A stretch of 64,000 nt of DNA from Phycisphaerales bacterium (GCA_020427635.1 JAGQOH010000001.1:26155-90154), one strand, 5' to 3'. Counted from the first letter of the stretch, positions 16,570-29,395 are shown. Made by a program: numbers and translations. Notes: a model not told the origin generated them from the sequence alone.

Positions 16570-16644
<75 letters not shown>

Positions 16645-16770
16645 TAGAGATAACTGTCGAGTAGCAAACGGCCTAGCGCTCGACAATGCAAGCCATGGAG
16701 GCCACTCATCGACTCGTTTTAGGGTCGGACTCGCGAAAGTCCGACCCCGAAGCAGGTCCGAGGAGCCTCC

Positions 16771-18051
16771 ATGCGTCGGATCAAAAAGCGCAAGAAAACC
16801 ATCCCTGAACCGAGGTTGCTTGGCAACGGCTCGGCGGGCGTCAACTTCGCAGGCACGCGCATCACGCTCGGTCCTTGGGATCACGAACAGCACTGTCCGA
16901 GTCCACTTGCGAGTCTCACATACGCGCACTTGCTCGCCGCGTGGGAGGCCAAGGGCAGGAAGCCGCTTCCCGGCGAAGCCATCGAAGCGATCAGGGAACG
17001 CGCACGCGCGGAACTCAACGGCGGTTCATCACGAAAGCGCGAACCGAGCAAGACCGTTGGTGACTTGATCGACGAGTATGTTCGGTTGAAGTCCGAGGAT
17101 CAGCGGCACGCGGTCACACCATCCACACAACGGACGATCCGCCATCATCTCATTTGGTTCCAAGAGCGCTACGGGGCGATGCCCGCGGAGACGTTCGGGA
17201 TTGCGCACCTTGAAGAGTCGCAGCAGATTCTCATCGCCCAGCAGCGCTGCAACTACAGGACGATCAACCTGCGCATCCGCACGCTCATCGCCGCGTACAA
17301 GCGGGGGGTGCAACTTGGATGGGTCGAGCCGACGCAGATCGTGGCGCTCACGGCGATCACACATCTCAGCGTCCGCTCAAAGGGCGTCAAGCCTCGCTAC
17401 GTCGCTTCCAGGAAGTGGAACGGCGTACCCGATGACATCTTCGAGGCGACGCTCAAGCACGTTCAGCTGCCGATGGTCCGCGATATGTTGCGGCTGCTCC
17501 GGTTGACGGGCATGCGCTGCGGGGAGTTGTGCGCGATGACCCTCAGCGAGGTGGACATGTCAGGCGATGTCTGGGTCTACATGCCAACGGAGCACAAGAC
17601 CGCGCACAAGGGCAAAGAACGACCGATCGTCCTCGGCCCGCGTGCGCAGACGATCCTCCAGCAGTACATGCACACGGACCTCAAGCGTCCGCTCTTCTCA
17701 CCACGCGAGGCGATGGAGGCCTTCTGGGCGGAGCGCCGTGCAAACCGAAAGTGGCATCCTTCGACGAACAAGGCGCGCGATGCGCGATTCCGCGAGGAGC
17801 CGAAGCATCGACTTGGCAAGCAGTGGTCGAGCGCGGCGATCGGGCGGGCGGTCACGCGAGCCTGTGAGCGGGCGAAGGTCGACCACTGGTCGCCCCATCG
17901 ACTTCGGCACGCCTACATCAACGACATTCGGCGGGAGTTCGGCGAGGAAGTCGCGCAGAAGCTTGTGGGTCACGCCAGCGCGGAGATGACGCGGCAGTAT
18001 GGCGATGCGGATTTGCGGGCGATGGCCGAGGCTGCGAGGAAGGTTGGTTAG
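16771..18051 (+). CDS. int: tyrosine recombinase / integrase (int1)
   Basis: ATG preceded by aggagc. Catalytic pattern LTGMRCGE (R) ... HRLRHAY (HxxR) ... GHAS ... RQY (Tyr). 125 nt downstream of tRNA-Pro. Confidence 0.85.
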   Translation: MRRIKKRKKTIPEPRLLGNGSAGVNFAGTRITLGPWDHEQHCPSPLASLTYAHLLAAWEAKGRKPLPGEAIEAIRERARAELNGGSSRKREPSKTVGDLIDEYVRLKSEDQRHAVTPSTQRTIRHHLIWFQERYGAMPAETFGIAHLEESQQILIAQQRCNYRTINLRIRTLIAAYKRGVQLGWVEPTQIVALTAITHLSVRSKGVKPRYVASRKWNGVPDDIFEATLKHVQLPMVRDMLRLLRLTGMRCGELCAMTLSEVDMSGDVWVYMPTEHKTAHKGKERPIVLGPRAQTILQQYMHTDLKRPLFSPREAMEAFWAERRANRKWHPSTNKARDARFREEPKHRLGKQWSSAAIGRAVTRACERAKVDHWSPHRLRHAYINDIRREFGEEVAQKLVGHASAEMTRQYGDADLRAMAEAARKVG

Positions 18052-20528
18052 GCGTCTCGATACCGCCAGTGGAGCTTCTTGGTCTCCCAGACGACTCCTT
18101 CTAGAGCCTGCTCGTCTCGGTATTGCTCAAAGAGTCGCTGGATGTTTTCTGGGAGTTCATCATCGCCGGGGTAGGCGAGGAGAACGCGATTCGGGAGTAG
18201 GTCTATCGCCACAGCGGCGAGTTTGTCTACATCCTCCTCGTCGAATCCACTTACTTTGCTCTTCACCTCACCGATCACCAACTCGCCGTTCACGAAACAC
18301 ACGAGGTCAAGGTCTGTGAAAGGTTGTTTGCTTCCGCTCTCGAACACATCCAAGGAGGGAAGCACTGCGGGGGTATGGCTGTGCATCCCACTCGAAACGA
18401 CTTCGAGGGCTTGAATCACTGCTACTACACCCCGACGCCGAATCGCTTCTTGGGCGAGCGTGTTGACCTGATAGAACCACGGAGGTTCAGAGTCAAGCAG
18501 GTTCTTCGCTCCGCAACCGGAACAAGTCAGAGTTGAGGCTATCTCGTCGACATAGACCCACTGCTTCGTAAGACAACGGTCGCAAGTGAACTCGGTGCCC
18601 ATCCGGAGAATGTCTCGGTGGATGAGCGAATCGAGTTCGTCGTTCATCTCATGGTGTTCCCAAGAAGCGTATTTCCAGTAGCCGTGCTCCGGGTTCTTTT
18701 TCCTTGCCTTGCCGCCCAGAGTGCCGAACAAGGTCTGTAGCTGGTTTTTCGTGAACCCCGGTGCATTCCGAGGAGAGGTTTGTATCGAGCCCGCGAGGTA
18801 GCTAGCCGCTTCATCAAGGCCAGCATGTTCTTGCAACTCCTCTATGCTCCGCACGTCAAGTCCTGCAAGTAATCCTGGCCTTTGCTCTCTCATCCGTAGC
18901 AACGCACGTCTCACTGACTGCTCCGTCACTCCCGGAGATAGCTTTGGACCTAGCACCATCTGATGCAGAGCCGGCCCCCAAAATGGATCGCCCAGAATGT
19001 AAGCAGTCTGATATGGCGAGCCGAATAGTCGAACGAGTGCTCCTAGGAATTGTCCTTCATCCGAGACGCGACACTTTGTGAACCGTGTCTCGCGTTTGAG
19101 ATGAACTTCTCCGACACCAGCTTGACTCATCCAGTTGTGAAAGAGTCCTCCCGGTGTTGGAAGGTGCACATATATTGGTTCCTCTCGGTTCGACATCGCT
19201 CGGCATGGCAACCGGGTCCGCTCGATCCGACGAACCGGGCAGCTAGGGAAGATCGCGGCGGCCAATCCCTGCCTCTGCGGAAGTTGCCAGATCAAGTCCC
19301 CGGAAACAGACTCGTCGATGTACGGGATGGTGAAGTCGACCATGAAGCAATCTTGACTTGACGGTCCTTCGAGGAAGTCAGGGAGGCGGACTTCGACAGC
19401 GGCTACTCCTTGGCTGACGTCGCAAAGGTGATTGCGGCTTAGGGATCTGCCGCTTGGTGCCGCCCAGTCCTGCCACATCGACGCATGTGGGTAAAAGCTT
19501 GGGGCACCGGGCAGCCCAAGGTCCCCTTCCGGAACGTCCTTGGCTTCAAACTTCAATTGCCATTGCTTCCCCAGGCCTTCCGCGATCGGAGCGAGTGACG
19601 CGGAAGCCTCGCTGCAGCTGACGACCAGACCTTGTTTCGTTTGCTGATTCCCCTCCGAATAGTTGTGGTCGATCCAATCGCGAAGTTGAGACAGAGACGC
19701 CTTATCATTCGCGAGCATCGAAGGAACCCATGCCACAGCCCTGTTGCGTTGAAGCGGATGACGAGACATTCGGATGGCTCGGAACAGCAAGAGATCATCG
19801 AGTGAGTCTCCAACCACGACGGTAAACCGGTGTTCATAGATGCCGCCCTCTGAGGTGAGCGGCCATGCTCGCCAAGCTGAGAGATCGTCGGGCGAGAAGG
19901 TGCCGCGATGTCGGTTTCCGAGAAGTAACTGGGAGAGCTTGGGCCCGTCGTAGTGGTCGAATCCGAGGTCGGAATAAGGAGCCTCTCGAAGTGCATCAAT
20001 TGTCTCTAGGTCATTGAAGAGCGTTCCGAAGTTGACGGCGATGAATCGCCCATGGATGTCATTGCCAGCGTTCCCGTGGATGAACTGAATGAGAGGTTGG
20101 AAGTGGGTTCTCGCGAGCCTTGCGATGGCCTGCGGAATCGACTTGATTCCAGTTGGTGTGTATCGCTGGAATACGCTCGGAGCGTGAAGTGCTTTTTCGA
20201 TCGGGAATCGAGCATTGATCTGGAAGATAGCGGGTGCGATATGCCGGTTGATCCACTTCGAGGTGTCGTCCGAGAGTCCGCGAAGGGCATAGATGCAATC
20301 AGGATCGGTGGCAATGAGTAGACGCTTCCATGCCTCTGATATCTCACCGTTCCTCGCAGGAACGATCGCGTTGTATCGACCGCCCCATCGCGTGCTGAAG
20401 TAGCACGAGAGCTCCTCGAAGTCCGCAACGGCCGTCTCCGCGTCGGCGTCGATGACGACGGCGACTCGCATCGGGCGAGGTGTAGCTCGGATCATAATGG
20501 ATTGGTCGGGGAGAGGGCGAGGGAACAT
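18048..20528 (-). CDS. orphan 826-aa protein with C-terminal zinc ribbon and PD-(D/E)xK-like nuclease motif
   Basis: ORF 18048..20714. ATG at 20528 lies 24 nt after the upstream stop. C-terminus has CDRC-x17-CSGC, then FTDLDLVCFVNGELVIGEVKSK (D...ExK). No family recognised in the N-terminal ~650 aa. AT-richer than the host. Confidence 0.7.
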   Translation of the reverse strand: MFPRPLPDQSIMIRATPRPMRVAVVIDADAETAVADFEELSCYFSTRWGGRYNAIVPARNGEISEAWKRLLIATDPDCIYALRGLSDDTSKWINRHIAPAIFQINARFPIEKALHAPSVFQRYTPTGIKSIPQAIARLARTHFQPLIQFIHGNAGNDIHGRFIAVNFGTLFNDLETIDALREAPYSDLGFDHYDGPKLSQLLLGNRHRGTFSPDDLSAWRAWPLTSEGGIYEHRFTVVVGDSLDDLLLFRAIRMSRHPLQRNRAVAWVPSMLANDKASLSQLRDWIDHNYSEGNQQTKQGLVVSCSEASASLAPIAEGLGKQWQLKFEAKDVPEGDLGLPGAPSFYPHASMWQDWAAPSGRSLSRNHLCDVSQGVAAVEVRLPDFLEGPSSQDCFMVDFTIPYIDESVSGDLIWQLPQRQGLAAAIFPSCPVRRIERTRLPCRAMSNREEPIYVHLPTPGGLFHNWMSQAGVGEVHLKRETRFTKCRVSDEGQFLGALVRLFGSPYQTAYILGDPFWGPALHQMVLGPKLSPGVTEQSVRRALLRMREQRPGLLAGLDVRSIEELQEHAGLDEAASYLAGSIQTSPRNAPGFTKNQLQTLFGTLGGKARKKNPEHGYWKYASWEHHEMNDELDSLIHRDILRMGTEFTCDRCLTKQWVYVDEIASTLTCSGCGAKNLLDSEPPWFYQVNTLAQEAIRRRGVVAVIQALEVVSSGMHSHTPAVLPSLDVFESGSKQPFTDLDLVCFVNGELVIGEVKSKVSGFDEEDVDKLAAVAIDLLPNRVLLAYPGDDELPENIQRLFEQYRDEQALEGVVWETKKLHWRYRDA

Positions 20529-20551
20529 CACTCCAGTATTGCAACTGAGAG

Positions 20552-21694
20552 CTACCTGCGGCGTTTGGTTAGCATTGGTAAGCACAGCACTACCAGCGAG
20601 CTTGGCGCCGGGATCGTTGCTACCCAAGCCTCTTGATGGCCGCTGGGGTTGAAGCCAGTCCCGACGAGGGTCATTCCATCCGCCGACACGGCGAACCCAT
20701 CGGTGAGATGCCACCCGGTCATGTCAAGCCCAAGGTCATCGCTGAGGAAGTCTTCGACCAGTCGGAATCCGGTGGCTTGCGTCCAGAGGAACGCCGCACC
20801 GCCGGGATACTGCGCGATGTCTGCGCGACCAATGACAACCGACCCATCATCGCTTACGCCGCGGGCTTCGCTGTCGAGTCCATTGCCACCGGTGACCCCG
20901 AGGCCAATCACGCCAGTTGCTTCTGACCAAAGGAATGCTTCGGTGATGCTGAAGCCGCCAAAGTTGGAGCCACCTGCGCCGACGATGAACGCGCCGTCTC
21001 CACTCACGCCGTAGGCCGCGGTTGGCGTCACTCCATCGCCCGACGGAAGCGCGACCATCCCGTCAGATGGTGTCCATCGGAAAGCGGCCATCCCAACGGG
21101 ACCATTTGCATTTGAACCGACGATCACCGAGCCATCGCTATTCGCAGCAGTTGCGAAGCCGCCGCGCGAGAAAGCTCCAGGAAGTGTCCCGAGTTCGACC
21201 ATCCCCTCAGACTGAGTCCAACGGAAGGGTCGATCACTAAACGTCGCACCGTAGAGCGTTGAGGACTGTCCGACTACGACATTGCCATCGCCGGAGATTC
21301 CTAGAGCTTGGCTATAGAAGTTTGCGCCCGGAAGATCGCCGAGGCCGACCATCCCGCCAGTGCTCCAGTGAAACGCTTCCCATCCATCTGGTGAGCTACT
21401 TGAGCCTGTGATAAACATGCCGTCATCGCTGACACTGTGCGCGCTGCTGGCAAATGCTCCGCCGGGAAGATCACCAATTCCGACAAGACCTGATTCGCGG
21501 GTCCAGCGAAATGCTTCTTGTCCCGTTGCTGAGTTGCCCCATCCGACAACGACCGAGCCGTCTGCACTCACGGAGCTTGCGACGCTCTGGAATGTTCCAC
21601 CTGCGAAGTCGCCAAGCCCCGTGAATGATGGTGCGGATGCAAGCACCGAATGCGCGGAGATCAGCGCAACGGTCAAAGCCGATAGCTTGTGCAT
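20552..21694 (-). CDS. HAF-family extracellular repeat protein with PEP-CTERM anchor
   Basis: ORF 20552..21730. ATG at 21694 gives a signal peptide (MHKLSALTVALISAHSVLA), about 8 repeats of S.DGsvvvG....eAFrWt...Gmv.LG.LpG, and the C-terminal IPAPSSLVVLCLPMLTKRRR. Confidence 0.8.
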   Translation of the reverse strand: MHKLSALTVALISAHSVLASAPSFTGLGDFAGGTFQSVASSVSADGSVVVGWGNSATGQEAFRWTRESGLVGIGDLPGGAFASSAHSVSDDGMFITGSSSSPDGWEAFHWSTGGMVGLGDLPGANFYSQALGISGDGNVVVGQSSTLYGATFSDRPFRWTQSEGMVELGTLPGAFSRGGFATAANSDGSVIVGSNANGPVGMAAFRWTPSDGMVALPSGDGVTPTAAYGVSGDGAFIVGAGGSNFGGFSITEAFLWSEATGVIGLGVTGGNGLDSEARGVSDDGSVVIGRADIAQYPGGAAFLWTQATGFRLVEDFLSDDLGLDMTGWHLTDGFAVSADGMTLVGTGFNPSGHQEAWVATIPAPSSLVVLCLPMLTKRRR

Positions 21695-21730
21695 GGTCCC
21701 TTCCCTCCTAAGGAGGGACGATCTTCGCAC

Positions 21731-21746
21731 TTGACGGGGCTGTCAA
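21731..21746. promoter_or_regulatory. TTGAC-N6-GTCAA palindrome (ttgacggggctgtcaa)
   Basis: Overlaps the int2 stop codon, ~37 nt upstream of the HAF gene start. Same half-sites as 22890, 27925 and 29264. Confidence 0.4.
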
Positions 21747-22840
21747 CTGCCAACGTGCGCCCCGCCCCCAAACGGCACCTGAATCGCCTTGGCGAGCCTT
21801 TGCTTGGCCCGGTCGCCCCGGCGGTCGTACTTGGAGGTCGTGACCGGGCTCGCGTGCCCAACGTGCATTTGAATGTCGCTCAGCGGTTCGCGCGCGTCGA
21901 TGAGGTCGCTGATTGCCGTGCGACGGAAGTCGTGCGGGCTCAGGCTTTCGATTCCCGCACCATCGGCGAGTCGCCTGACCGCTTGAAAGACGCTGTTCGG
22001 GTCCAACCGACGAGGCTTCTTCGTCTGCTTCGTCGTGTAGAAAACCTGCTTGCCCCCGCGCGAGACGGGCAACAACAGCGCGCCGTCACTATCACCGCGC
22101 AGGTTCACCCAGCGATCGAGCGCGATCTTCGCGCCGTTCGAGATGAAGATATGCCGTGAGCGCTGGCCCTTGCTATTGAGAATCGCGAGCGTGCCGTTGT
22201 CCCTGTCATAGTCGCAGAGATCAAGCGCGACGATCTCCGCACGACGAAGGCCAACGCACAAGAGGCCGAGAATCGCCGCATCGCGCACGCCGCGCGGTGT
22301 CTCATCGGCTTCCGCGATCTTGAAGAGCGCTCGTCGCTCGCCCCACTTGATGTAGCGCCCGGCAACCTTGTCAGTCTTTGCCTTCTTCGCCCGAAACTCT
22401 CTGAGCAGCGCCCGCTCGCGATCGGTGTTGATGAGTTCCAGTTCGCAGCAAGCGCGAACAACCCCGCGAACTGCCGCGAGCATCTTGTTCTGCGATGCAG
22501 GCGAGAGCGCTGCGCCCTTGCGGTTCCTGATGTTTCCGCCGTTGGTCGCGCCGAGGATCGTCGCCCTGAGCCTCCGCGAGTCCTTGACGGTCATTCGTTC
22601 CCAAGCGATGGCGCGCACATGATCGTCGGTGACATGCGCAAGGTCATCGAGCATCGCGCTAAGCAACCGCCGGAGCGCCGAGCGCATGCCCAGTCGGCTG
22701 TTCTCCGCGTCGAGGCCGTCGATGTACCACTCAACCGGGTCGCAGTCGCGCTCAGGAAGAACCTCCCTCACGAGTTCCCAATCGCAGACGCGAGTTCGGC
22801 TGAGAGTGATACTGGTCCCGGGCTCGGTTCCGGTCGGCAT
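21743..22840 (-). CDS. int: tyrosine recombinase / integrase (int2)
   Basis: GLRRAE (R) ... HDFRRT (HxxR) ... GHAS ... SKY (Tyr); ATG start. Confidence 0.85.
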   Translation of the reverse strand: MPTGTEPGTSITLSRTRVCDWELVREVLPERDCDPVEWYIDGLDAENSRLGMRSALRRLLSAMLDDLAHVTDDHVRAIAWERMTVKDSRRLRATILGATNGGNIRNRKGAALSPASQNKMLAAVRGVVRACCELELINTDRERALLREFRAKKAKTDKVAGRYIKWGERRALFKIAEADETPRGVRDAAILGLLCVGLRRAEIVALDLCDYDRDNGTLAILNSKGQRSRHIFISNGAKIALDRWVNLRGDSDGALLLPVSRGGKQVFYTTKQTKKPRRLDPNSVFQAVRRLADGAGIESLSPHDFRRTAISDLIDAREPLSDIQMHVGHASPVTTSKYDRRGDRAKQRLAKAIQVPFGGGAHVGS

Positions 22841-22889
22841 GGCCTGTTCCTTCCGCTGTACGGTTCGACAACTTCAATTATCGTAAAAG

Positions 22890-22905
22890 TTGACTCTAGG
22901 GTCAA
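22890..22905. promoter_or_regulatory. TTGAC-N6-GTCAA palindrome (ttgactctagggtcaa)
   Basis: 50 nt upstream of the int2 start, in an AT-rich stretch. Confidence 0.45.
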
Positions 22906-23030
22906 GTGAGAAGTTGCCAGATGAGGGCGCGCCGTGCGGCACGCTGCGCAAGGAGGGTCCGCTGTGGCGCGTTGAGCGGTCGGGGATGCCCTGGGGCGGG
23001 GACGGTTGCGCGAACCGGACTGAAGGCCTA

Positions 23031-23324
23031 TCAGGCGGCGTATAGCGAGGCGAGTGAGCGCGCGGTCGCGTCGAACCGCTCGTTGATATTGGGTAAGGCC
23101 AAGATGTCAGGCATTTGTTGTGCCTGTTCGTCGAGCCGCGCACGGATGTCCGCGAAGGCTTCGGCTTGCGAAGGAAGATCAAGAGCATCGACGTTCGAGC
23201 GATGGCCGATCATTGCGAGGGCTTCAATCAATGCAAGGCGTTTCTCGATGATCGAGCGCTGGAAGGCCTTACGCGCACGAAGGTCACGCAAAGTCGAGTT
23301 GATAATTGATCTTGTAGACGCCAC
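23031..23324 (-). CDS. hypothetical protein (island)
   Basis: ORF 23031..23471 overlaps the upstream gene. A GTG at 23324 lies 1 nt after that gene's TGA (translational coupling) and gives a 97-aa helical protein. Start is uncertain. Confidence 0.35.
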   Translation of the reverse strand: MASTRSIINSTLRDLRARKAFQRSIIEKRLALIEALAMIGHRSNVDALDLPSQAEAFADIRARLDEQAQQMPDILALPNINERFDATARSLASLYAA

Positions 23325-23325
23325 G

Positions 23326-23709
23326 TCAATCCTCGCTGCTGGACACGGGGAGTCCCTGTCGAACAAGGGCGCTCGTGTCAAGAACTCCCGCATCGAGTCG
23401 CCCGTCGATGATGTCGGCAGCGATTTCGTCGAGTTCGAGCAGGAGATCGATTCCCTCGCTTGGTTTACCAAGGCAAAACTCGAAAATTGTTTTCACTGCG
23501 GTGATGCGATCCGCAGCGTTCGTAGTCTTATCCGCGGCGATGTTGCTCAGCACGCCAAGCAACTTCGGCAGCAGATCATGCGACTCGGCAACGTCGAGCA
23601 GCCTGTGCCGCAACGTTGACATTTTGCGCCTGACGCTGTTGCCTCGCCCATAGGTATTGCCGCTTGTAAAACGGCCATTTTCGTCGCGTCCATGCGCCGC
23701 CGGCTCCAT
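23326..23709 (-). CDS. hypothetical phage-like protein (GRFTSGNTYGRG motif resembles DUF5681)
   Basis: ATG at 23709 overlaps the upstream stop (ATGA). The sequence looks like a real protein. The family call is tentative. Confidence 0.5.
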   Translation of the reverse strand: MEPAAHGRDENGRFTSGNTYGRGNSVRRKMSTLRHRLLDVAESHDLLPKLLGVLSNIAADKTTNAADRITAVKTIFEFCLGKPSEGIDLLLELDEIAADIIDGRLDAGVLDTSALVRQGLPVSSSED

Positions 23710-24449
23710 CACGCGCCTCCAGCAGCGAGCGCGAGCGGATCGCCCGAAGCGCCGCCAATGCGAGTAATGTCCTCGCGTGCGGCGGCAAGCCGCTCTTCAA
23801 CCGCGCGAATCGACTTCGACAGAGTCGTGACAATCTTCGCCTGCGCAGGTGATCGTGCGATGTTCCATTCAACCAGCAAAGCCTCGACTTGTTCGTCTGC
23901 GAGCCAAGCGCGACGAAGTGGAATCGGCGCTAGCAACAGCGATTCAGGCAACACATCGTCGCCCATTTCGATGGAGTTCCGCACAAGCTCAACAACACCG
24001 AGTGGGACGGTTACGTCGAGTAGGCCGCTCTCTCGCAATTCGCTGATAACTGCAAGCCGTTCACTGAGCGACAGCGACTTCGTTGCTCGGCCTTCGCCGA
24101 GCATCCTTGTTTCCCCTTCAAGGAGGCGGCGCAGATGTGCAAGGTATCGGATTGTGCCAAGCGATTCCAAGCGCTGGCCGTAGTTCAGGGCCAGCCGACC
24201 AAGCTCGGCCTTGCGACCAGTTGCCGTGTAGTCCGTGGAACGTCGGACGTTCGTAGCGGCCTTTTCGAGGTCCGCGCGAAGCAGGTCGAGGCGTTGAATC
24301 TGCTCGCCACAACCGGCGATGTACCGCTTCAGATCGCTTTGGCCGTCGAACGTTGAATCGGCATCAAGCTGTTCACGGCTCGGGACCCGGCCAATGCCAA
24401 ACTCGGCGGCGACTTTGACGACGTCATCCATGACGATTCCTTTCTTCAT
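23709..24449 (-). CDS. hypothetical protein (island)
   Basis: 246-aa ORF with an ATG start (MKKGIVMDDV), helical and coiled-coil-like. No family recognised. Confidence 0.55.
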   Translation of the reverse strand: MKKGIVMDDVVKVAAEFGIGRVPSREQLDADSTFDGQSDLKRYIAGCGEQIQRLDLLRADLEKAATNVRRSTDYTATGRKAELGRLALNYGQRLESLGTIRYLAHLRRLLEGETRMLGEGRATKSLSLSERLAVISELRESGLLDVTVPLGVVELVRNSIEMGDDVLPESLLLAPIPLRRAWLADEQVEALLVEWNIARSPAQAKIVTTLSKSIRAVEERLAAAREDITRIGGASGDPLALAAGGA

Positions 24450-24551
24450 AGCTTCCGCGAAGTGTTATTATCGCGCATCATCAGAGTACGCGCTCACCGT
24501 ACTTGATTCAAGGGTTTGACCGTCGATTTCCGCCTCCTCTCGGGCGACGAC

Positions 24552-25022
24552 TCAGCGAAAGATCAGCAGAAGCTCCCTGGCGCTGAACCCCGTGCCGTCG
24601 GCGTCGATCAACATCGACTCCAGGACGAACCTCAACAGCTTCTCCGCCGCTTCGTCGTCGGTGTCGAGCGTGCGAACCCCGGCCCGCTCAAGCATCCACG
24701 CGGGCGGAGCGTCGATCCGACCGGCCATGGCGCGCAGGACCCAAGGCATCATCGCCGACACGTCATCGAACCCGTAGCCGCCGTCAGGGTCCGGCTCCAT
24801 TCGAGGGACCGTGCAGATGGCGACTGCGAGCCTTGCGCGATTGATCCAACGAGGCGTGTTTCGCTCGGGCAGGGCCGCGAGGAAGATTTCGCTTCGCAGC
24901 CATTCGACGGGAGGCAGGGCCTCGCGCTCGTGATCGGGCAGGCTCGCGTCATGCGCGAGCTTCGCGATGATCTCGTCGAGCGGGCGCGCGTCCAGATAAG
25001 TCTCTTCATGGGTTTGCATCAT
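24552..25022 (-). CDS. hypothetical protein (island)
   Basis: 156-aa acidic ORF with an ATG start. No family recognised. Confidence 0.5.
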   Translation of the reverse strand: MMQTHEETYLDARPLDEIIAKLAHDASLPDHEREALPPVEWLRSEIFLAALPERNTPRWINRARLAVAICTVPRMEPDPDGGYGFDDVSAMMPWVLRAMAGRIDAPPAWMLERAGVRTLDTDDEAAEKLLRFVLESMLIDADGTGFSARELLLIFR

Positions 25023-25094
25023 TCAATTTCCTTTCAGAGGTTCGAGCCGCAAGTCCGGTTTTCGAACGGGGCGCGGATGGGCGCGCCTGGGTCA

Positions 25095-25188
25095 GTCAAA
25101 TTTGACGCGCGCACCGCGCTCGTATGCGCACGCACATAATCAATATCTCCTGCGCGATGCGTGTGCGCACGCATGGAGTGTGCGGTGC
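25095..25188. repeat. iteron-like repeats plus GTCAAATTTGAC palindrome; putative replication origin
   Basis: Perfect 12-bp palindrome at 25095-25106. TGCGCACGCA occurs at 25125-25134 and 25164-25173, with related GCGCAC/GTGCGG motifs nearby. Lies in the 275-nt non-coding gap next to the primase gene. Confidence 0.35.
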
Positions 25189-25246
25189 GTCCCAAATCGC
25201 CCTTCACATGGGCGCAAACTCGGTTGACCGCAATCCGAGCCGACAA

Positions 25247-25282
25247 GTTTGTCATGTGGTGAGCCCCCACCTCATGACAAAC
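25247..25282. terminator. strong hairpin after primase stop (gtttgtcatg..ggtg-agcccc-cacc..catgacaaac)
   Basis: About 14 bp of pairing with one T:T mismatch. The T-run (gttttt) is on the + strand; only ttgtcgg follows on the - strand. Begins 16 nt beyond the primase stop. Confidence 0.5.
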
Positions 25283-25297
25283 GTTTTTCGCCGATCC

Positions 25298-27403
25298 TCA
25301 AATGGGCAAGTCTGGCGCAAGCTCACCCCTCCAATTCGCGTTCTTGTCGAGCAACTTGTTCGCAATCGCACGGGAGAGCAGCATCGCACGACTTGTTCCG
25401 GATTCGACCCGGACACTCCCCGCCTGCTGGGTCGGCCCATCAGGGCCATCGTGCACAAGGCCAAATTCGTGTAGCACTCTCGCGAACTGCCGCTGATTCG
25501 AGATGCTTGCGAGGAGCGGCTTCTTCCGCCCTTGGACCCCTGCGACAGCGCCGTAGCGGAGCGCTAGCCAAACGCGCCGGTCGTCGTCGATCTGAAGCCA
25601 GACCTCCGAGTCGGGATGCCCCCGCGACCATCGGCCCGGCTCAGGCATGTCCAACAAAGCGAAATACGAAGCGAGCCGCGCCATCATCGAAGCGCGTTGA
25701 ACGACCGTCGTCTTCGTGCCGTCGGTCGCTTCCTTCTGAATGGTTACAACAACATCGCGATCGTGCATCAGCGCTTCAACAAGCTGATCCTTGAGCGCAC
25801 GTGCAGCCTTACTGTTTGGACCGAGCGCCTTCGCCGCCCCAACAAGCGTGTTCGGAATCATCTCAACAACGTCAGCCCAAGCAGCGGCCATCAACACACC
25901 GAGCACGCGGGCAGCTTCCTCGTGTGTGCGTGCGCGCTGCGGGTCCCAATCACTGCCTCGTAACACCGCTTCGCGCGCACCCGCCGACTTGTGATTGGTA
26001 ATCCGAGTGATCTTCACAAGCTCACCAAGCTTTTCCGACCATGCATGCTCGCCGAGCACAAACCGAGCATCCCAACGAGCGCGAATGAATTCAATCAAGT
26101 TCGCAATCATCGTCGGTGTGGGAGGCGATCCCCCCGCCAGTGTTTCTGCCTTCGCGATGGCATCCATGCGCGCTGCATGGCGAGAGAGCAATAGCTTCGC
26201 TTCCCCAGGCGCACTCAGTGAACGAATCCACGTTCGTAGGCGGGGCACATCTCGCTTCGATACGGCCCCGCCACCGGCCTCGACGAGTTCCCGAATCGCC
26301 TTCGCCGCGTCTGACCCGGAACGCTCACTCGGGCGCAGGATGATCGGAACCGTTGTATCGCCATAGGTCGCGTCCCAAGTTAGTTCGATCGCGCCTCGCA
26401 CCCTCGCAGCATCGGTCAATACAAGCTTGACTTTGCGCCACTCGCGAGCCTCAGCCTCCGGAATTGCTATGGAAATGGGCCCGTCCGGGGTCTGCATCCA
26501 AGGCGCGGGCGTCACGTCATCGGCCATCGCGCGGGCACGTTCAGACAGGTCATCACCTAGCGGCGAATATCTCTCGCGAAGATCATGGAGCGCAGGATCA
26601 ATGACGTACTTGCGCAGGTAACTGCTCGATCCGCGACTTTCATCCCACTTCGCACGAGCTCGCCCAGATTGCCGCAACAGGCTCTCAAGCTGCGCGCGGT
26701 CTTGCGACCAGAACGCCAACTGGCGAGCCAGTGCAAGATCAGCCTCGCTGTCGCTCTTGTGCCCGGCATCGCCGCCCGCGAAGAGTTCGCGAAACTTCGA
26801 GCCGTTTGATGCGTTCGCTGCGCGTTCGAGGATTTCCGCGTCAGACATCAGCGGCGAACCGAATGACGCCGAGCGAGGACGAGCATCGCGAGGTGTTTCC
26901 GGCTCGGCGAAGTATCTCCCAAACAGCCAATCAATCGCGGGCTGATTCTCGACCACTTCATCCGGGCCATCTCCGAACTTCTCGCCGGTGAAGACGAAGA
27001 ATCGATCGCGGTCATAGACTTCGAGGCCTTTGAACGACATGCCTTTGCTCGTGCGCCGCCTTCCCGGAGGTAGTGTCCCGCGCACATAGATATGCAGGCC
27101 ACGCTTCGACTTCGAGAGCTCCGTGAAGCTCCCGAGCTTGTCGAGAATGTGCCTCGCGTCTGCCGCGAGGTTGCCTTCTTCGTCGATACACCCGTCGAGA
27201 TCAATCCCGATGATCCCTCGTCCGTCAAAGACGAAACCGAGGCCATCGACATGCCTCGCTTCGACTGCCGCACGAGCTTCGCCGAGGCTGAAGCTCGTTC
27301 GCGTCACGTCGCATGTTCGCCCGCGAAGGTCGCGCGGTGCCTTGTCGCCTTTCCAGCAGACCCAGCGCCCTTCACTGAGCGTATTCGGAATGCTATGCTT
27401 CAT
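25298..27403 (-). CDS. primase-polymerase (AEP/Prim-Pol N-terminal domain + PriCT-2-like domain), no recognisable helicase Walker A
   Basis: ORF 25298..27508, ATG at 27403. Motifs GIDLDGC, SKSKRGLHIYV, LEVYDRDRFFVFTG, then KSDSEADLALARQLAFWS...RAKWDE (PriCT-2-like). The C-terminal ~370 aa are unassigned. Confidence 0.75.
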   Translation of the reverse strand: MKHSIPNTLSEGRWVCWKGDKAPRDLRGRTCDVTRTSFSLGEARAAVEARHVDGLGFVFDGRGIIGIDLDGCIDEEGNLAADARHILDKLGSFTELSKSKRGLHIYVRGTLPPGRRRTSKGMSFKGLEVYDRDRFFVFTGEKFGDGPDEVVENQPAIDWLFGRYFAEPETPRDARPRSASFGSPLMSDAEILERAANASNGSKFRELFAGGDAGHKSDSEADLALARQLAFWSQDRAQLESLLRQSGRARAKWDESRGSSSYLRKYVIDPALHDLRERYSPLGDDLSERARAMADDVTPAPWMQTPDGPISIAIPEAEAREWRKVKLVLTDAARVRGAIELTWDATYGDTTVPIILRPSERSGSDAAKAIRELVEAGGGAVSKRDVPRLRTWIRSLSAPGEAKLLLSRHAARMDAIAKAETLAGGSPPTPTMIANLIEFIRARWDARFVLGEHAWSEKLGELVKITRITNHKSAGAREAVLRGSDWDPQRARTHEEAARVLGVLMAAAWADVVEMIPNTLVGAAKALGPNSKAARALKDQLVEALMHDRDVVVTIQKEATDGTKTTVVQRASMMARLASYFALLDMPEPGRWSRGHPDSEVWLQIDDDRRVWLALRYGAVAGVQGRKKPLLASISNQRQFARVLHEFGLVHDGPDGPTQQAGSVRVESGTSRAMLLSRAIANKLLDKNANWRGELAPDLPI

Positions 27404-27467
27404 TTGGAACCTCATTCGCCGCGTCGGACCATGCCAGCAAAAGCAGTCCGCGCGGCGTTTTTCGTTT

Positions 27468-27653
27468 TCAGTTTCGATCCCGAGTGCTGATGTGCTGTTC
27501 AACATCACGCAGCTTGAAACGCCATTGGCCGCCGATCTTCAACGCTGGTAGGCGCTGCTGCGTCGCAAGCCTCGTGACCGTTCGATGTGAAACACCGAAT
27601 CGCTTTGCAACTGCGCGAGCACTCACGAACTCACCTTGTTGGTCTGCCTTCAT
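27468..27653 (-). CDS. xis: AlpA/excisionase-family HTH DNA-binding protein
   Basis: 61 aa. VSARAVAKRFGVSHRTVTRLATQQRLPALKIGGQWRFKLRDV is the MerR-like HTH_17 pattern. Lies directly upstream of the primase. Confidence 0.75.
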   Translation of the reverse strand: MKADQQGEFVSARAVAKRFGVSHRTVTRLATQQRLPALKIGGQWRFKLRDVEQHISTRDRN

Positions 27654-27924
27654 ATGACATGAGCCCCTGACAGACGCCTTGCTGCGTCTGCTGTGTTCCG
27701 GAATCCCGTTGTGTTTGGTGAGGCGTTTCGCCCCGGCTCACCGGTCGGCACCGCGCTGCTTGACCGGAAGCCGCGCGCGTCGCTCGGGATTGGCTTTCGT
27801 GCGGAGCGGGTCAAGCTCCGACCATCCCGGGCCGTCTGGGAGCGGACGCCCCCGCGTGCATGGTCAGAATAGCCATCGGAGCCATCATGTCAAGGCGCAA
27901 GTATTGCGCTGACAAGTACTTACG

Positions 27925-27940
27925 TTGACCCTAGGGTCAA
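27925..27940. promoter_or_regulatory. perfect palindrome TTGACCCTAGGGTCAA
   Basis: 16/16 self-complementary. Located in the non-coding region between xis and the right-arm cargo. Additional half-sites occur nearby (cttgaccg around 27759-27766, cgggtcaag around 27808-27816). Confidence 0.5.
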
Positions 27941-27998
27941 GTTGAGCAGGCCCACTCAGGGGCCTCAGATCGGCTCTGGGCGATTGCCAAGCCGTGCC

Positions 27999-28036
27999 AA
28001 ACAAAACGGGGCCCGCAGGAGGTTCCTGCGGGCCCC
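27999..28036 (-). terminator. rho-independent terminator of the 65-aa gene
   Basis: 13-bp perfect stem ggggcccgcagga/tcctgcgggcccc with a 3-nt loop. On the minus strand it is followed by ttttgtttg. Lies 30 nt after the stop at 28066. Confidence 0.8.
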
Positions 28037-28065
28037 AGGGATCATCAGATCCGTGATACCGAAAC

Positions 28066-28263
28066 TCAGAAGTTGCCGGTGTTCTTGCGCACCGTGCCGC
28101 GCTGAAGGTCCAGCATCGCGGCTTCGTAGTTGCTAATGGGCTTCCCGTTCAGGTTCGCCCCTGTCACAACACCATTCGGAGCATGGACGTGAAGTTGGCC
28201 CTGTGGGATGTCCTTCACGTAGTCCGTGCTCCGCCCTTGTGCCTTACCCTGCGATCCGTACAT
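28066..28263 (-). CDS. small hypothetical protein (65 aa)
   Basis: ATG start, a dedicated strong terminator and non-junk composition (MYGSQGKAQGRSTDYVKDIPQGQLHVHAPNG...). No family recognised. Confidence 0.5.
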   Translation of the reverse strand: MYGSQGKAQGRSTDYVKDIPQGQLHVHAPNGVVTGANLNGKPISNYEAAMLDLQRGTVRKNTGNF

Positions 28264-28318
28264 GGCAGTTCTCCGATCTCTGCGTTCAGATTGCGACCGT
28301 CATACGCCCCGGTCACAC

Positions 28319-28439
28319 GGGCGGGATTCTGGCCAGCCTCCATGAAAGGGAACGGGGCTTAAAAAGCGGTTCAGAGCGGTCGGTCGGCACTTCCCTTCAG
28401 GTTTTTAACGCCGCCCCTTATCATAGGGGGCGGGATTCT
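28319..28439. repeat. 12-nt direct repeat GGGCGGGATTCT x2 in divergent control region
   Basis: Exact copies at 28319-28330 and 28428-28439. The second is adjacent to the hairpin ccgcccct-tatcat-agggggcgg, just upstream of the 153-aa gene. Confidence 0.5.
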
Positions 28440-28475
28440 CTCGCCCATGGTGTACTAGCTGAGGTGGTACGTCTG

Positions 28476-28937
28476 ATGTACGAGAGTTCAACAGACCGAG
28501 AAGCCATCGACCCCTTCCATGGGAACGCCTGTAGTTGCCGGGCGTGCTCGGTGCTAATCGAGCCGGACCAAGCGGCGTATGAGGAATTGAAGCAAACACG
28601 TATCGAAGCCGCACTCGCCCGGCTCACCCAGATCTTGTCTAGCGGCCAATGGAACTCGCGCCCCAAGATGCGGAGTGTCGTCGAAGTCTTGGAGGAAATC
28701 CTCGACCAACCGAATGCGCTGCGTGTCTTCGTGAAGGCGACCTACAGCGACGCGGACGGTGAACTCGTTAGCACATGGGTGCAGGACTTCTTGGCCCAAA
28801 CACATGAGATCAAGGTGTCGAATGTGACAATCGGTAACGTTGTTCGCGAAATTCAGCGGGTTGCACAATCCACCCTTGCGAGACAGAATGAGAGTCTTGC
28901 GGAGAAGACCATAGATGGACAATTCAAATCCATTTGA
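28476..28937 (+). CDS. hypothetical protein (153 aa)
   Basis: ORF 28203..28937. Internal ATG at 28476 is preceded by gaggtgg. CxC-x2-C near the N-terminus, then helical. No family recognised. Confidence 0.5.
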   Translation: MYESSTDREAIDPFHGNACSCRACSVLIEPDQAAYEELKQTRIEAALARLTQILSSGQWNSRPKMRSVVEVLEEILDQPNALRVFVKATYSDADGELVSTWVQDFLAQTHEIKVSNVTIGNVVREIQRVAQSTLARQNESLAEKTIDGQFKSI

Positions 28938-29136
28938 TCGGACTCAGGACATCAACGCTCGCCCGTTGGGTCTTGGCCACAACCCCTACGGCTCTGTTCA
29001 ACCCACGCTTTCAAATACCGACGGTTTGCGTTCGGCGCTAAACGCTTTCTTTGATGAGGTCCACTCAGCGAGGAATCCCGCGTCTGCGCCTTTTGGTGAG
29101 ACGCACGGGCCCCAGAAGCCACCCTCGCTCTTTTGA
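28915..29136 (+). CDS. small hypothetical protein (73 aa)
   Basis: ATG preceded by ggagaag at correct spacing. Overlaps the upstream gene end by 23 nt. Low-complexity Pro/Gly-rich sequence. Confidence 0.3.
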   Translation: MDNSNPFDRTQDINARPLGLGHNPYGSVQPTLSNTDGLRSALNAFFDEVHSARNPASAPFGETHGPQKPPSLF

Positions 29137-29263
29137 AGCCCGCCTTGACACTCGTAGCCGTCGCGCACGCCCAAGTCGCCCGTTGATCGGGGGGTCGAAG
29201 TCGTCTCTTTCGACCCCGCCGACCCTTTTCGACCCTAACTCTAGCGGGGTCAACAACCGACAC

Positions 29264-29279
29264 TTGACCCTAGAGTCAA
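29264..29279. promoter_or_regulatory. TTGAC-N6-GTCAA palindrome (ttgaccctagagtcaa)
   Basis: 75 nt inside attR. Preceded by repeated tcgaccc motifs (29205-29240) and a looser gaccctaactctagcggggtc palindrome. Confidence 0.45.
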
Positions 29280-29353
29280 CTTCAGTAGTATCAGCAACTT
29301 AGTGGTTCTCAATGGCGCGTGAAATAGCGGGGGTCTCAAGCCGCTCGGGGCGG

Positions 29354-29395
29354 CTGGGGGTCAAAAGGTCGCAGGTTCAAATCCTGTCACCCCGA
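29354..29395 (+). repeat. attR: 42-bp direct repeat (tRNA-Pro 3' fragment)
   Basis: Identical to 16602..16643. The upstream sequence cannot form the D-arm or 5' acceptor stem, so it is a fragment and not a second tRNA. Confidence 0.9.

Follow-up and report, generated by a model that had tools for sequence, protein, structure and literature searches.

A conserved protein family with a C-terminal zinc ribbon and PD-(D/E)xK-type nuclease domain, represented on a tRNA-Pro island of a Phycisphaerales bacterium: a candidate single-gene defence nuclease

The 826-residue protein and its predicted domains

The window analysed here is a stretch of 64,000 nucleotides (nt) from a Phycisphaerales bacterium (GCA_020427635.1, JAGQOH010000001.1:26155-90154), which contains an element integrated in a tRNA-Pro gene. 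The largest gene of this element (18048..20528, minus strand) encodes a protein of 826 residues, compared with 736 for the element's primase, and is the subject of our study. An earlier note, made from the sequence alone, had described it as an orphan with a zinc ribbon and a PD-(D/E)xK-like C-terminus and proposed a single-polypeptide sensor-nuclease. Our data support the C-terminal assignment with invariant residues, a predicted topology, fold matches and a motif alignment to VC1899, and reveal that the protein is no orphan: it belongs to a large, rare and patchily distributed family whose members often lie beside defence systems.

The open reading frame has its stop codon at 18048-18050 and two possible starts, GTG at 20714 and ATG at 20528. 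The latter is the better choice, because the first 19 residues, MFPRPLPDQSIMIRATPRP (MFPxxIPDxxI...), are kept in three of four close homologues; in the NCBI annotation of the Phycisphaerales metagenome-assembled genome (MAG) the protein has 807 residues and begins at MRVAVV. The reading frame is a real gene. Its translation contains all the motifs quoted previously, namely MRVAVVIDAD (residues 20-29), RFTVVVGDSLDDLLLF (234-249), CDRC...CSGC (649-672) and FTDLDLVCFVNGELVIGEVKSK (737-758), the only correction being that 16 residues, not 17, separate the two cysteine pairs. The gene does lie in a stretch richer in AT than the host: its GC content is 56.2%, against 63.6% and 62.4% in the flanks, and its GC content at third codon positions (GC3) is 0.618.

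For the structure we relied on an AlphaFold2 model computed from 68 family sequences (predicted local distance difference test score, pLDDT, 87.9; predicted template modelling score 0.87), which replaced a model from 5 sequences only with a pLDDT of 39. Conservation was counted in 154 representatives, mostly less than 50% identical to one another. The four-cysteine zinc ribbon occupies residues 641-688 (18465..18608, minus strand) and is predicted to form two beta-hairpins, from strands 641-648 and 655-659 and from strands 666-668 and 675-677. C649, C652 and C669 are each present in 151 of 151 sequences and C672 in 150 of 151. In up to 10 of 39 members there are weak matches to zinc-ribbon families of Pfam.

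The remaining residues, 689-826 (18051..18464, minus strand), form a PD-(D/E)xK-type nuclease domain according to topology, conservation and fold matches. The model predicts with confidence (pLDDT >90) an alpha-beta-beta-beta-alpha-beta core, composed of helix 699-713, strands 726-730, 742-746 and 749-755, helix 764-777 and strand 781-787; D741 stands where strand 2 begins, and strand 3 contains an ExK motif. The catalytic motif is essentially invariant across the homologues, as are the CxxC pairs: an acidic residue (D or E) occupies position 739 in 150/150 sequences, D741 is found in 150/150, E754 in 148/149 and K756 in 147/149.

Foldseek searches with the whole 826-residue model against PDB and a viral library (BFVD) agree with a restriction-endonuclease-type core. 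The best PDB matches are VC1899 (1xmx; E 3e-3, probability 0.99), the stand-alone restriction endonuclease EcoT38I (7e8r; probability 0.95, root-mean-square deviation 5.3 Å over 134 columns) and Can2 (8bao; probability 0.75), and the rest of the 50 matches listed are low-probability Rossmann-like proteins. The viral library yielded 'restriction endonuclease' models (probability up to 0.95), MGME1 and RPB5. A profile of the nuclease segment aligns to residues 258-315 of VC1899, so that [D/E]739-x-D741 of the family falls on E291-L-D293 and the GE-x-K motif with E754-x-K756 on ECK. E291 and D293 are active-site residues of VC1899, and TsuCan2 was inactivated by a double mutation of its E-x-K motif (PMC7969007).

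Membership of the protein in the PD-(D/E)xK superfamily is well supported by these observations, and the protein may accordingly have a metal-dependent nuclease activity. Among Pfam families of nucleases only NERD (PF08378) was matched, by one of 58 members (4.8e-5); when the C-terminal domains were searched alone, 5 of 39 matched NERD at E<=1 (best 0.004), and the window protein had no match. NERD belongs to the PD-(D/E)xK superfamily. The nearest nuclease domains are those of Can2/VC1899 (DUF1887) and NERD, and inclusion of the family in Shedu, DUF1887 or NERD is not supported.

The N-terminal 640 residues are predicted to fold into four domains. Domain A (residues 9-105; 20214..20504, minus strand; pLDDT mostly >90) consists of an N-terminal strand followed by a Rossmann-like (beta-alpha)4 unit, the unit proper spanning residues 22-104. 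After a mixed region (105-233) follows domain B, a second Rossmann-like (beta-alpha)4 unit with the sequence FTVVVGD (233-330; 19539..19832, minus strand; the unit proper spans 235-329), in which G240 is near-invariant (147/148). The two strand starts noted previously are indeed the first strands of these units. An origin of A and B by internal duplication was considered and rejected, as hhalign gave a probability below 1%. Next come a beta-rich middle domain (346-488; 19065..19493, minus strand) with conserved D398, P417 (150/151) and R434 (148/151), and a helical domain (489-640; 18609..19064, minus strand), which opens with the conserved S489-D-E-G492 (S489 in 149/152).

The absence of a recognisable family from roughly the first 650 residues, stated in the earlier note, is borne out by library, PDB-sequence and segment-profile searches alike. 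The window protein has no Pfam family at E<=0.01, searches of NCBIfam, PADLOC and PDB sequences likewise gave no match, and PHROGs gave a single borderline one, to phrog_12574 (function unknown; E 0.01, residues 637-680). No Pfam or PADLOC family was identified in the N-terminal 640 residues of 58 full-length members, profiles of three N-terminal segments found nothing significant among PDB sequences, and nothing consistent emerged when 29 N-terminal domains were scanned leniently against Pfam.

Domain A carries a cluster of conserved residues comprising R18 (130/130), W48-G49-G50 (G50 in 142/142), D75-P-D77 (D75 in 143/144, D77 in 144/144) and P99. Because conservation is as strict here as at the putative catalytic positions, domain A may hold a second functional site, and the pattern of R18, W48-G-G50 and D75-x-D77 in the sequences suggests a putative ligand-binding or catalytic pocket. 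TOPRIM, PIN, GT-A and nucleotidyltransferase readings of the DxD pair were considered and not adopted, since either position or spacing of the motif disagrees with them and none has support from any tool.

The element in tRNA-Pro

The gene is cargo of a 12.75-kb element that is integrated in tRNA-Pro and whose ends are an exact 42-nt direct repeat. The tRNA-Pro(GGG) gene (16570..16644, plus strand) is recognised by both ARAGORN and Rfam, and its 3' 42 nt (16602-16643) constitute the left attachment site, attL; the exact copy at 29354..29395 (plus strand) is attR. ARAGORN proposed a second tRNA-Pro(cgg) of 83 nt at 29313-29395. As Rfam recognises the left tRNA only and the final 42 nt match the tRNA-Pro 3' end exactly, we regard this interval as the attR remnant and not as a gene.

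The repeat and two tyrosine integrases identify the integrase-bearing island that had been proposed, with the gene of interest situated between the two integrases. Integrase 1 (16771..18051, plus strand; PF00589, 7e-17) converges on the 826-residue gene, with a 4-nt overlap at the stop codon of the latter. On the other side, 23 nt upstream and in the same direction, lies a gene for a HAF-repeat protein (20552..21730, minus strand; TIGR02913, 1e-26), which has a similarly low GC3 (0.61) and is a neighbour of the family gene in no other locus. Another 12 nt upstream of the HAF-repeat gene, again in the same direction, follows integrase 2 (21743..22840, minus strand; PF00589, 6e-22). GC3 is 0.78 in both integrases.

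Several unannotated genes separate integrase 2 from a primase/helicase gene (25298..27508, minus strand), which represents a replication module (NrS-1 polymerase HBD domain, 1e-16; PHROG DNA primase/helicase, 7e-56). No capsid or transfer genes are recognisable in the island (16602-29395), which resembles a small integrative replicative element or satellite. A comparable element, equipped with a serine recombinase and Prim-Pol, contains another family member (locus L047 in our numbering).

A promoter-like site at 22905-22877, identified by consensus match only, is the only one on the minus strand upstream of integrase 2. Its -35 box is overlapped by one copy (22889-22907) of a 19-nt palindrome, GTTGACYCTAGGGTCAAGT, which occurs three times in the island (also at 27924-27942 and 29263-29281). 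The palindrome is probably an operator for a repressor of the island.

Distribution and genomic neighbourhoods of the family

The extent of the family depends strongly on the search. Word-indexed searches with the protein, a 5-sequence profile or a C-terminal profile found 4-5 proteins each, and the five retrieved, even from a profile, are 40-44% identical. When a hidden Markov model (HMM) of the family was run exhaustively against 1.84 billion cluster representatives, 2106 of them matched at E<=1e-3, 908 at E<=1e-10 and 283 at E<=1e-30; among the best 150 matches listed, the majority are 700-870 residues long and align end to end. The designation 'orphan' is thereby withdrawn. Apparent orphans from word-indexed searches should be re-checked, given that the present one belongs to a family of thousands. 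No source names the family, and no publications citing accessions of its members were found. In the libraries and literature searched there is no description of the family, its architecture or its N-terminal module; this type of effector and its general logic are already known.

The family is rare yet widespread and patchy. In GTDB, scanned with one genome for each of 185,579 species by means of a degenerate DNA motif that covers about one third of the family, 31 stretches were matched, of which approximately 27 are true members. They are distributed among Cloacimonadota, Saccharibacteria/Patescibacteria, Planctomycetota, Chlamydiota, Clostridia, Melainabacteria, Gemmatimonadota, Acidobacteriota, Bacteroidota, Omnitrophota, Gammaproteobacteria and Myxococcota, and the family as a whole spans more than 12 phyla. 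In two loci from a Bacteroidota and an Acidobacteriota MAG (L025, 2551-5032, and L032, 24-2498) the gene is split over at least two reading frames, representing either decaying copies or assembly errors.

Plasmids likewise carry the gene. Full-length members were detected by tblastn in Burkholderia glumae (WP_257835394.1; 2e-136 with the family HMM) and Piscirickettsia salmonis (WP_155085025.1; 2e-82), and more distant ones in Bradyrhizobium and Rhodococcus. A phage origin was considered and dismissed: tblastn of 50,697 phage genomes gave no family match, and the single motif match in IMG/VR is a chance occurrence and no family member. A plasmid protein of Streptomyces longwoodensis (L045, 6531-8675; 714 residues) shares only the zinc-ribbon-nuclease module and has another N-terminal part; genes in its vicinity encode a trypsin-like peptidase/trypco2 pair and an N6 methylase. 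The module may be shuffled among different N-terminal regions.

Our survey of genomic context covers about a dozen independent loci and proceeds by guilt by association, with no enrichment statistic. No neighbour family recurs across clades, which agrees with the proposal of a single stand-alone gene; a conserved partner was considered and abandoned, recurrence being confined to Cloacimonadota. There, in six loci (L012, L024, L033, L034, L035 and L038), the family gene is found between purL/purQ and a class-V aminotransferase gene, in a slot that sometimes also holds an ATPase_2 (AAA) gene. As the family gene is inserted at this position with or without ATPase_2, the slot appears to be a lineage-specific, variable insertion hot spot.

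In this small sample most loci with at least 8 kb of context have suggestive neighbours, of defence or mobility type, and some flanks are housekeeping. Homologues are often found beside defence systems. One member lies 119 nt downstream of a DISARM-like operon (MmeI/Eco57I methylase, Helicase_C, MZB/DUF1998, PLD), one between a type III restriction-modification pair and Abi_C, and one between a NACHT STAND nucleoside triphosphatase (NTPase) with a helicase and a TPR-HEPN protein; in two loci type IIG restriction-modification enzymes adjoin the family gene. The P. salmonis plasmid copy is adjacent to RelE/ParE and to a RecB-like nuclease with a helicase, and the distant member of Bradyrhizobium follows PrlF/YhaV near an Abi protein. 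Signs of mobility include an element that combines a serine recombinase with Prim-Pol and Fic, a serine recombinase in L006, and a tRNA gene immediately before the family gene in L007 and L025. On the B. glumae plasmid (NZ_CP100298.1; L041, 1953-10029) the gene follows three tandem tyrosine recombinases and a small open reading frame, with IS481 and MazEF nearby. The arrangement resembles 'recombinase in trio' elements and parallels the linkage to integrases in the window.

Comparison with known systems and possible function

In Shedu (SduA, DUF4263), which consists of one gene and occurs in defence islands, a variable N-terminal region precedes a C-terminal PD-(D/E)xK nuclease. The present family shares this single-gene layout with the nuclease at the C-terminus, and a divergent Shedu-like protein had been one of the suggested identities. 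This suggestion does not hold. No PADLOC model of any system matches the window protein at E<=0.1, the only PADLOC matches of the 58 members at E<=0.01, four single and weak ones, are to models other than Shedu, and DUF4263 is absent from the Pfam families reported for the window protein, the 58 members or the 39 C-terminal domains. Neither is a Shedu structure among the 50 PDB fold matches listed, and the 826-residue protein differs from Shedu in its zinc ribbon and its much larger size.

The best structural match is to Can2, Card1 and VC1899 (DUF1887), CRISPR ancillary nucleases composed of CARF and PD-(D/E)xK domains, which likewise combine an N-terminal regulatory part and a C-terminal nuclease in one polypeptide. 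However, these proteins are about half as long and lack a zinc ribbon before the nuclease, and their similarity to the family in sequence is insignificant on its own. Pfam and PADLOC recognise no CARF domain in the window protein, and just one of 58 members matches CARF_PDDEXK, at only 0.003; no type III CRISPR or cas genes were seen in the inspected neighbourhoods. NERD proteins are without the N-terminal architecture of the family, a minority of whose members match them, and weakly. Stand-alone restriction endonucleases, in spite of the fold match to EcoT38I, have no sequence similarity to the family and no counterpart of its large conserved N-terminal region, and the family has no linked methyltransferase.

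The explanation we favour, with a probability of about one half, is that these proteins are a new family of stand-alone, single-polypeptide conflict or defence nucleases carried as cargo by mobile elements. The C-terminal ~140 residues would be a Can2/NERD-like, metal-dependent PD-(D/E)xK nuclease with [D/E]739-x-D741 and E754-x-K756 as its active site, and the zinc ribbon just upstream probably has a part in holding nucleic acid or in positioning the nuclease. The N-terminal ~640 residues, with two Rossmann-like domains, one beta-rich and one helical domain, may be the recognition or regulatory part. Recognition by this part of an invader cue, which could be a DNA feature, a nucleotide-like ligand or a phage protein, would license the nuclease to cut DNA, either that of the invader or that of the cell. 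Integrative elements and plasmids would be the vehicles by which the family spreads. Nuclease activity, N-terminal sensing and a protective phenotype are all inferred.

Several observations weigh against this explanation. The E-values of the Foldseek matches are weak (3e-3 to 0.2), because the 826-residue model was searched whole, and both the alignment to VC1899 (E 0.6-1.1) and the NERD matches fall below significance by themselves. No member has a convincing match to a defence HMM of PADLOC. The context sample is small and has no background statistics, and several of its loci are flanked by housekeeping genes such as purL/purQ, dnaE and tRNA synthetases. As the N-terminal region has no identified fold relative, the term 'sensor' is an assumption, and the invariant acidic pair in domain A could just as well belong to a second enzymatic activity.

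A special case of defence would be a solitary restriction endonuclease, type IV-like (modification-dependent) or type II-like, whose N-terminal domains read DNA modification or sequence and which cuts non-self DNA directly, without abortive infection or small-molecule sensing. A single gene with a restriction-endonuclease-type fold would fit such an enzyme, as would the presence of EcoT38I and viral 'restriction endonuclease' models among the best matches, and in four loci methyltransferase-containing systems (type IIG, type III, DISARM) are directly adjacent; the absence of a consistently linked cognate methylase fits a modification-dependent enzyme. On the other hand, neither SRA, EVE, YTH, PUA, winged-helix nor any other reader or DNA-binding family is detected in the 58 members, there is no NTPase motor of the kind common in type IV enzymes, and the R/GG/DxD cluster seems to resemble a small-ligand or catalytic pocket more than a DNA-reading surface. 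We consider a restriction enzyme of this kind unlikely. Slightly less likely still is a nuclease that serves the element itself, in competition between elements, in exclusion of rivals, or by assisting the recombination, replication or transfer of integrative elements and plasmids. The co-direction of the gene with integrase 2 and the HAF-repeat gene across gaps of 12 and 23 nt speaks for such a role, together with the three recombinases preceding the B. glumae copy, the member on an element with serine recombinase and Prim-Pol, the serine recombinase of L006 and the plasmid-borne members. However, at most loci no recombinase is seen within the visible flanks, many copies are single-gene insertions between housekeeping genes, and defence systems are commoner as neighbours than genes for transfer or replication. 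Finally, many PD-(D/E)xK nucleases are repair enzymes, and dnaE, pur genes and tRNA synthetases flank some loci, which could point to a low-abundance housekeeping nuclease for DNA repair or processing. This we regard as very improbable in view of the rarity and patchiness of the family (the ~27 matches in 185,579 species, obtained with a motif covering about one third of the family, are spread over more than 12 phyla), the foreign GC content of the window gene, its location on an island between att repeats, the frameshifted copies in L025 and L032, and the plasmid-borne members.

If a defence role of the family is confirmed, a widespread family of single-gene immune nucleases would be at hand that Pfam, NCBIfam and PADLOC miss completely, and with it a large conserved N-terminal module in which the invariant residues indicate a defined site for ligand binding or catalysis. 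A bolder version, which we put forward only tentatively and hold for rather less probable than the general one, sees in the protein the founding example of a phylum-spanning single-gene immune family (~2100 clusters). Its N-terminal 640 residues would then be a sensor or enzyme module not seen before, which, with an invariant R...WGG...DxD pocket in one of its Rossmann-like domains, controls a Can2-like nuclease via the zinc ribbon, and detection would be coupled to DNA cleavage in a new way, without a separate signalling enzyme. The plasmid copies of B. glumae and P. salmonis come from cultured strains and hence offer natural starting points for experiments.

Elsewhere in the window, a high AT skew at 59-60 kb was considered as a special feature and merely reflects a membrane-protein gene on the minus strand.

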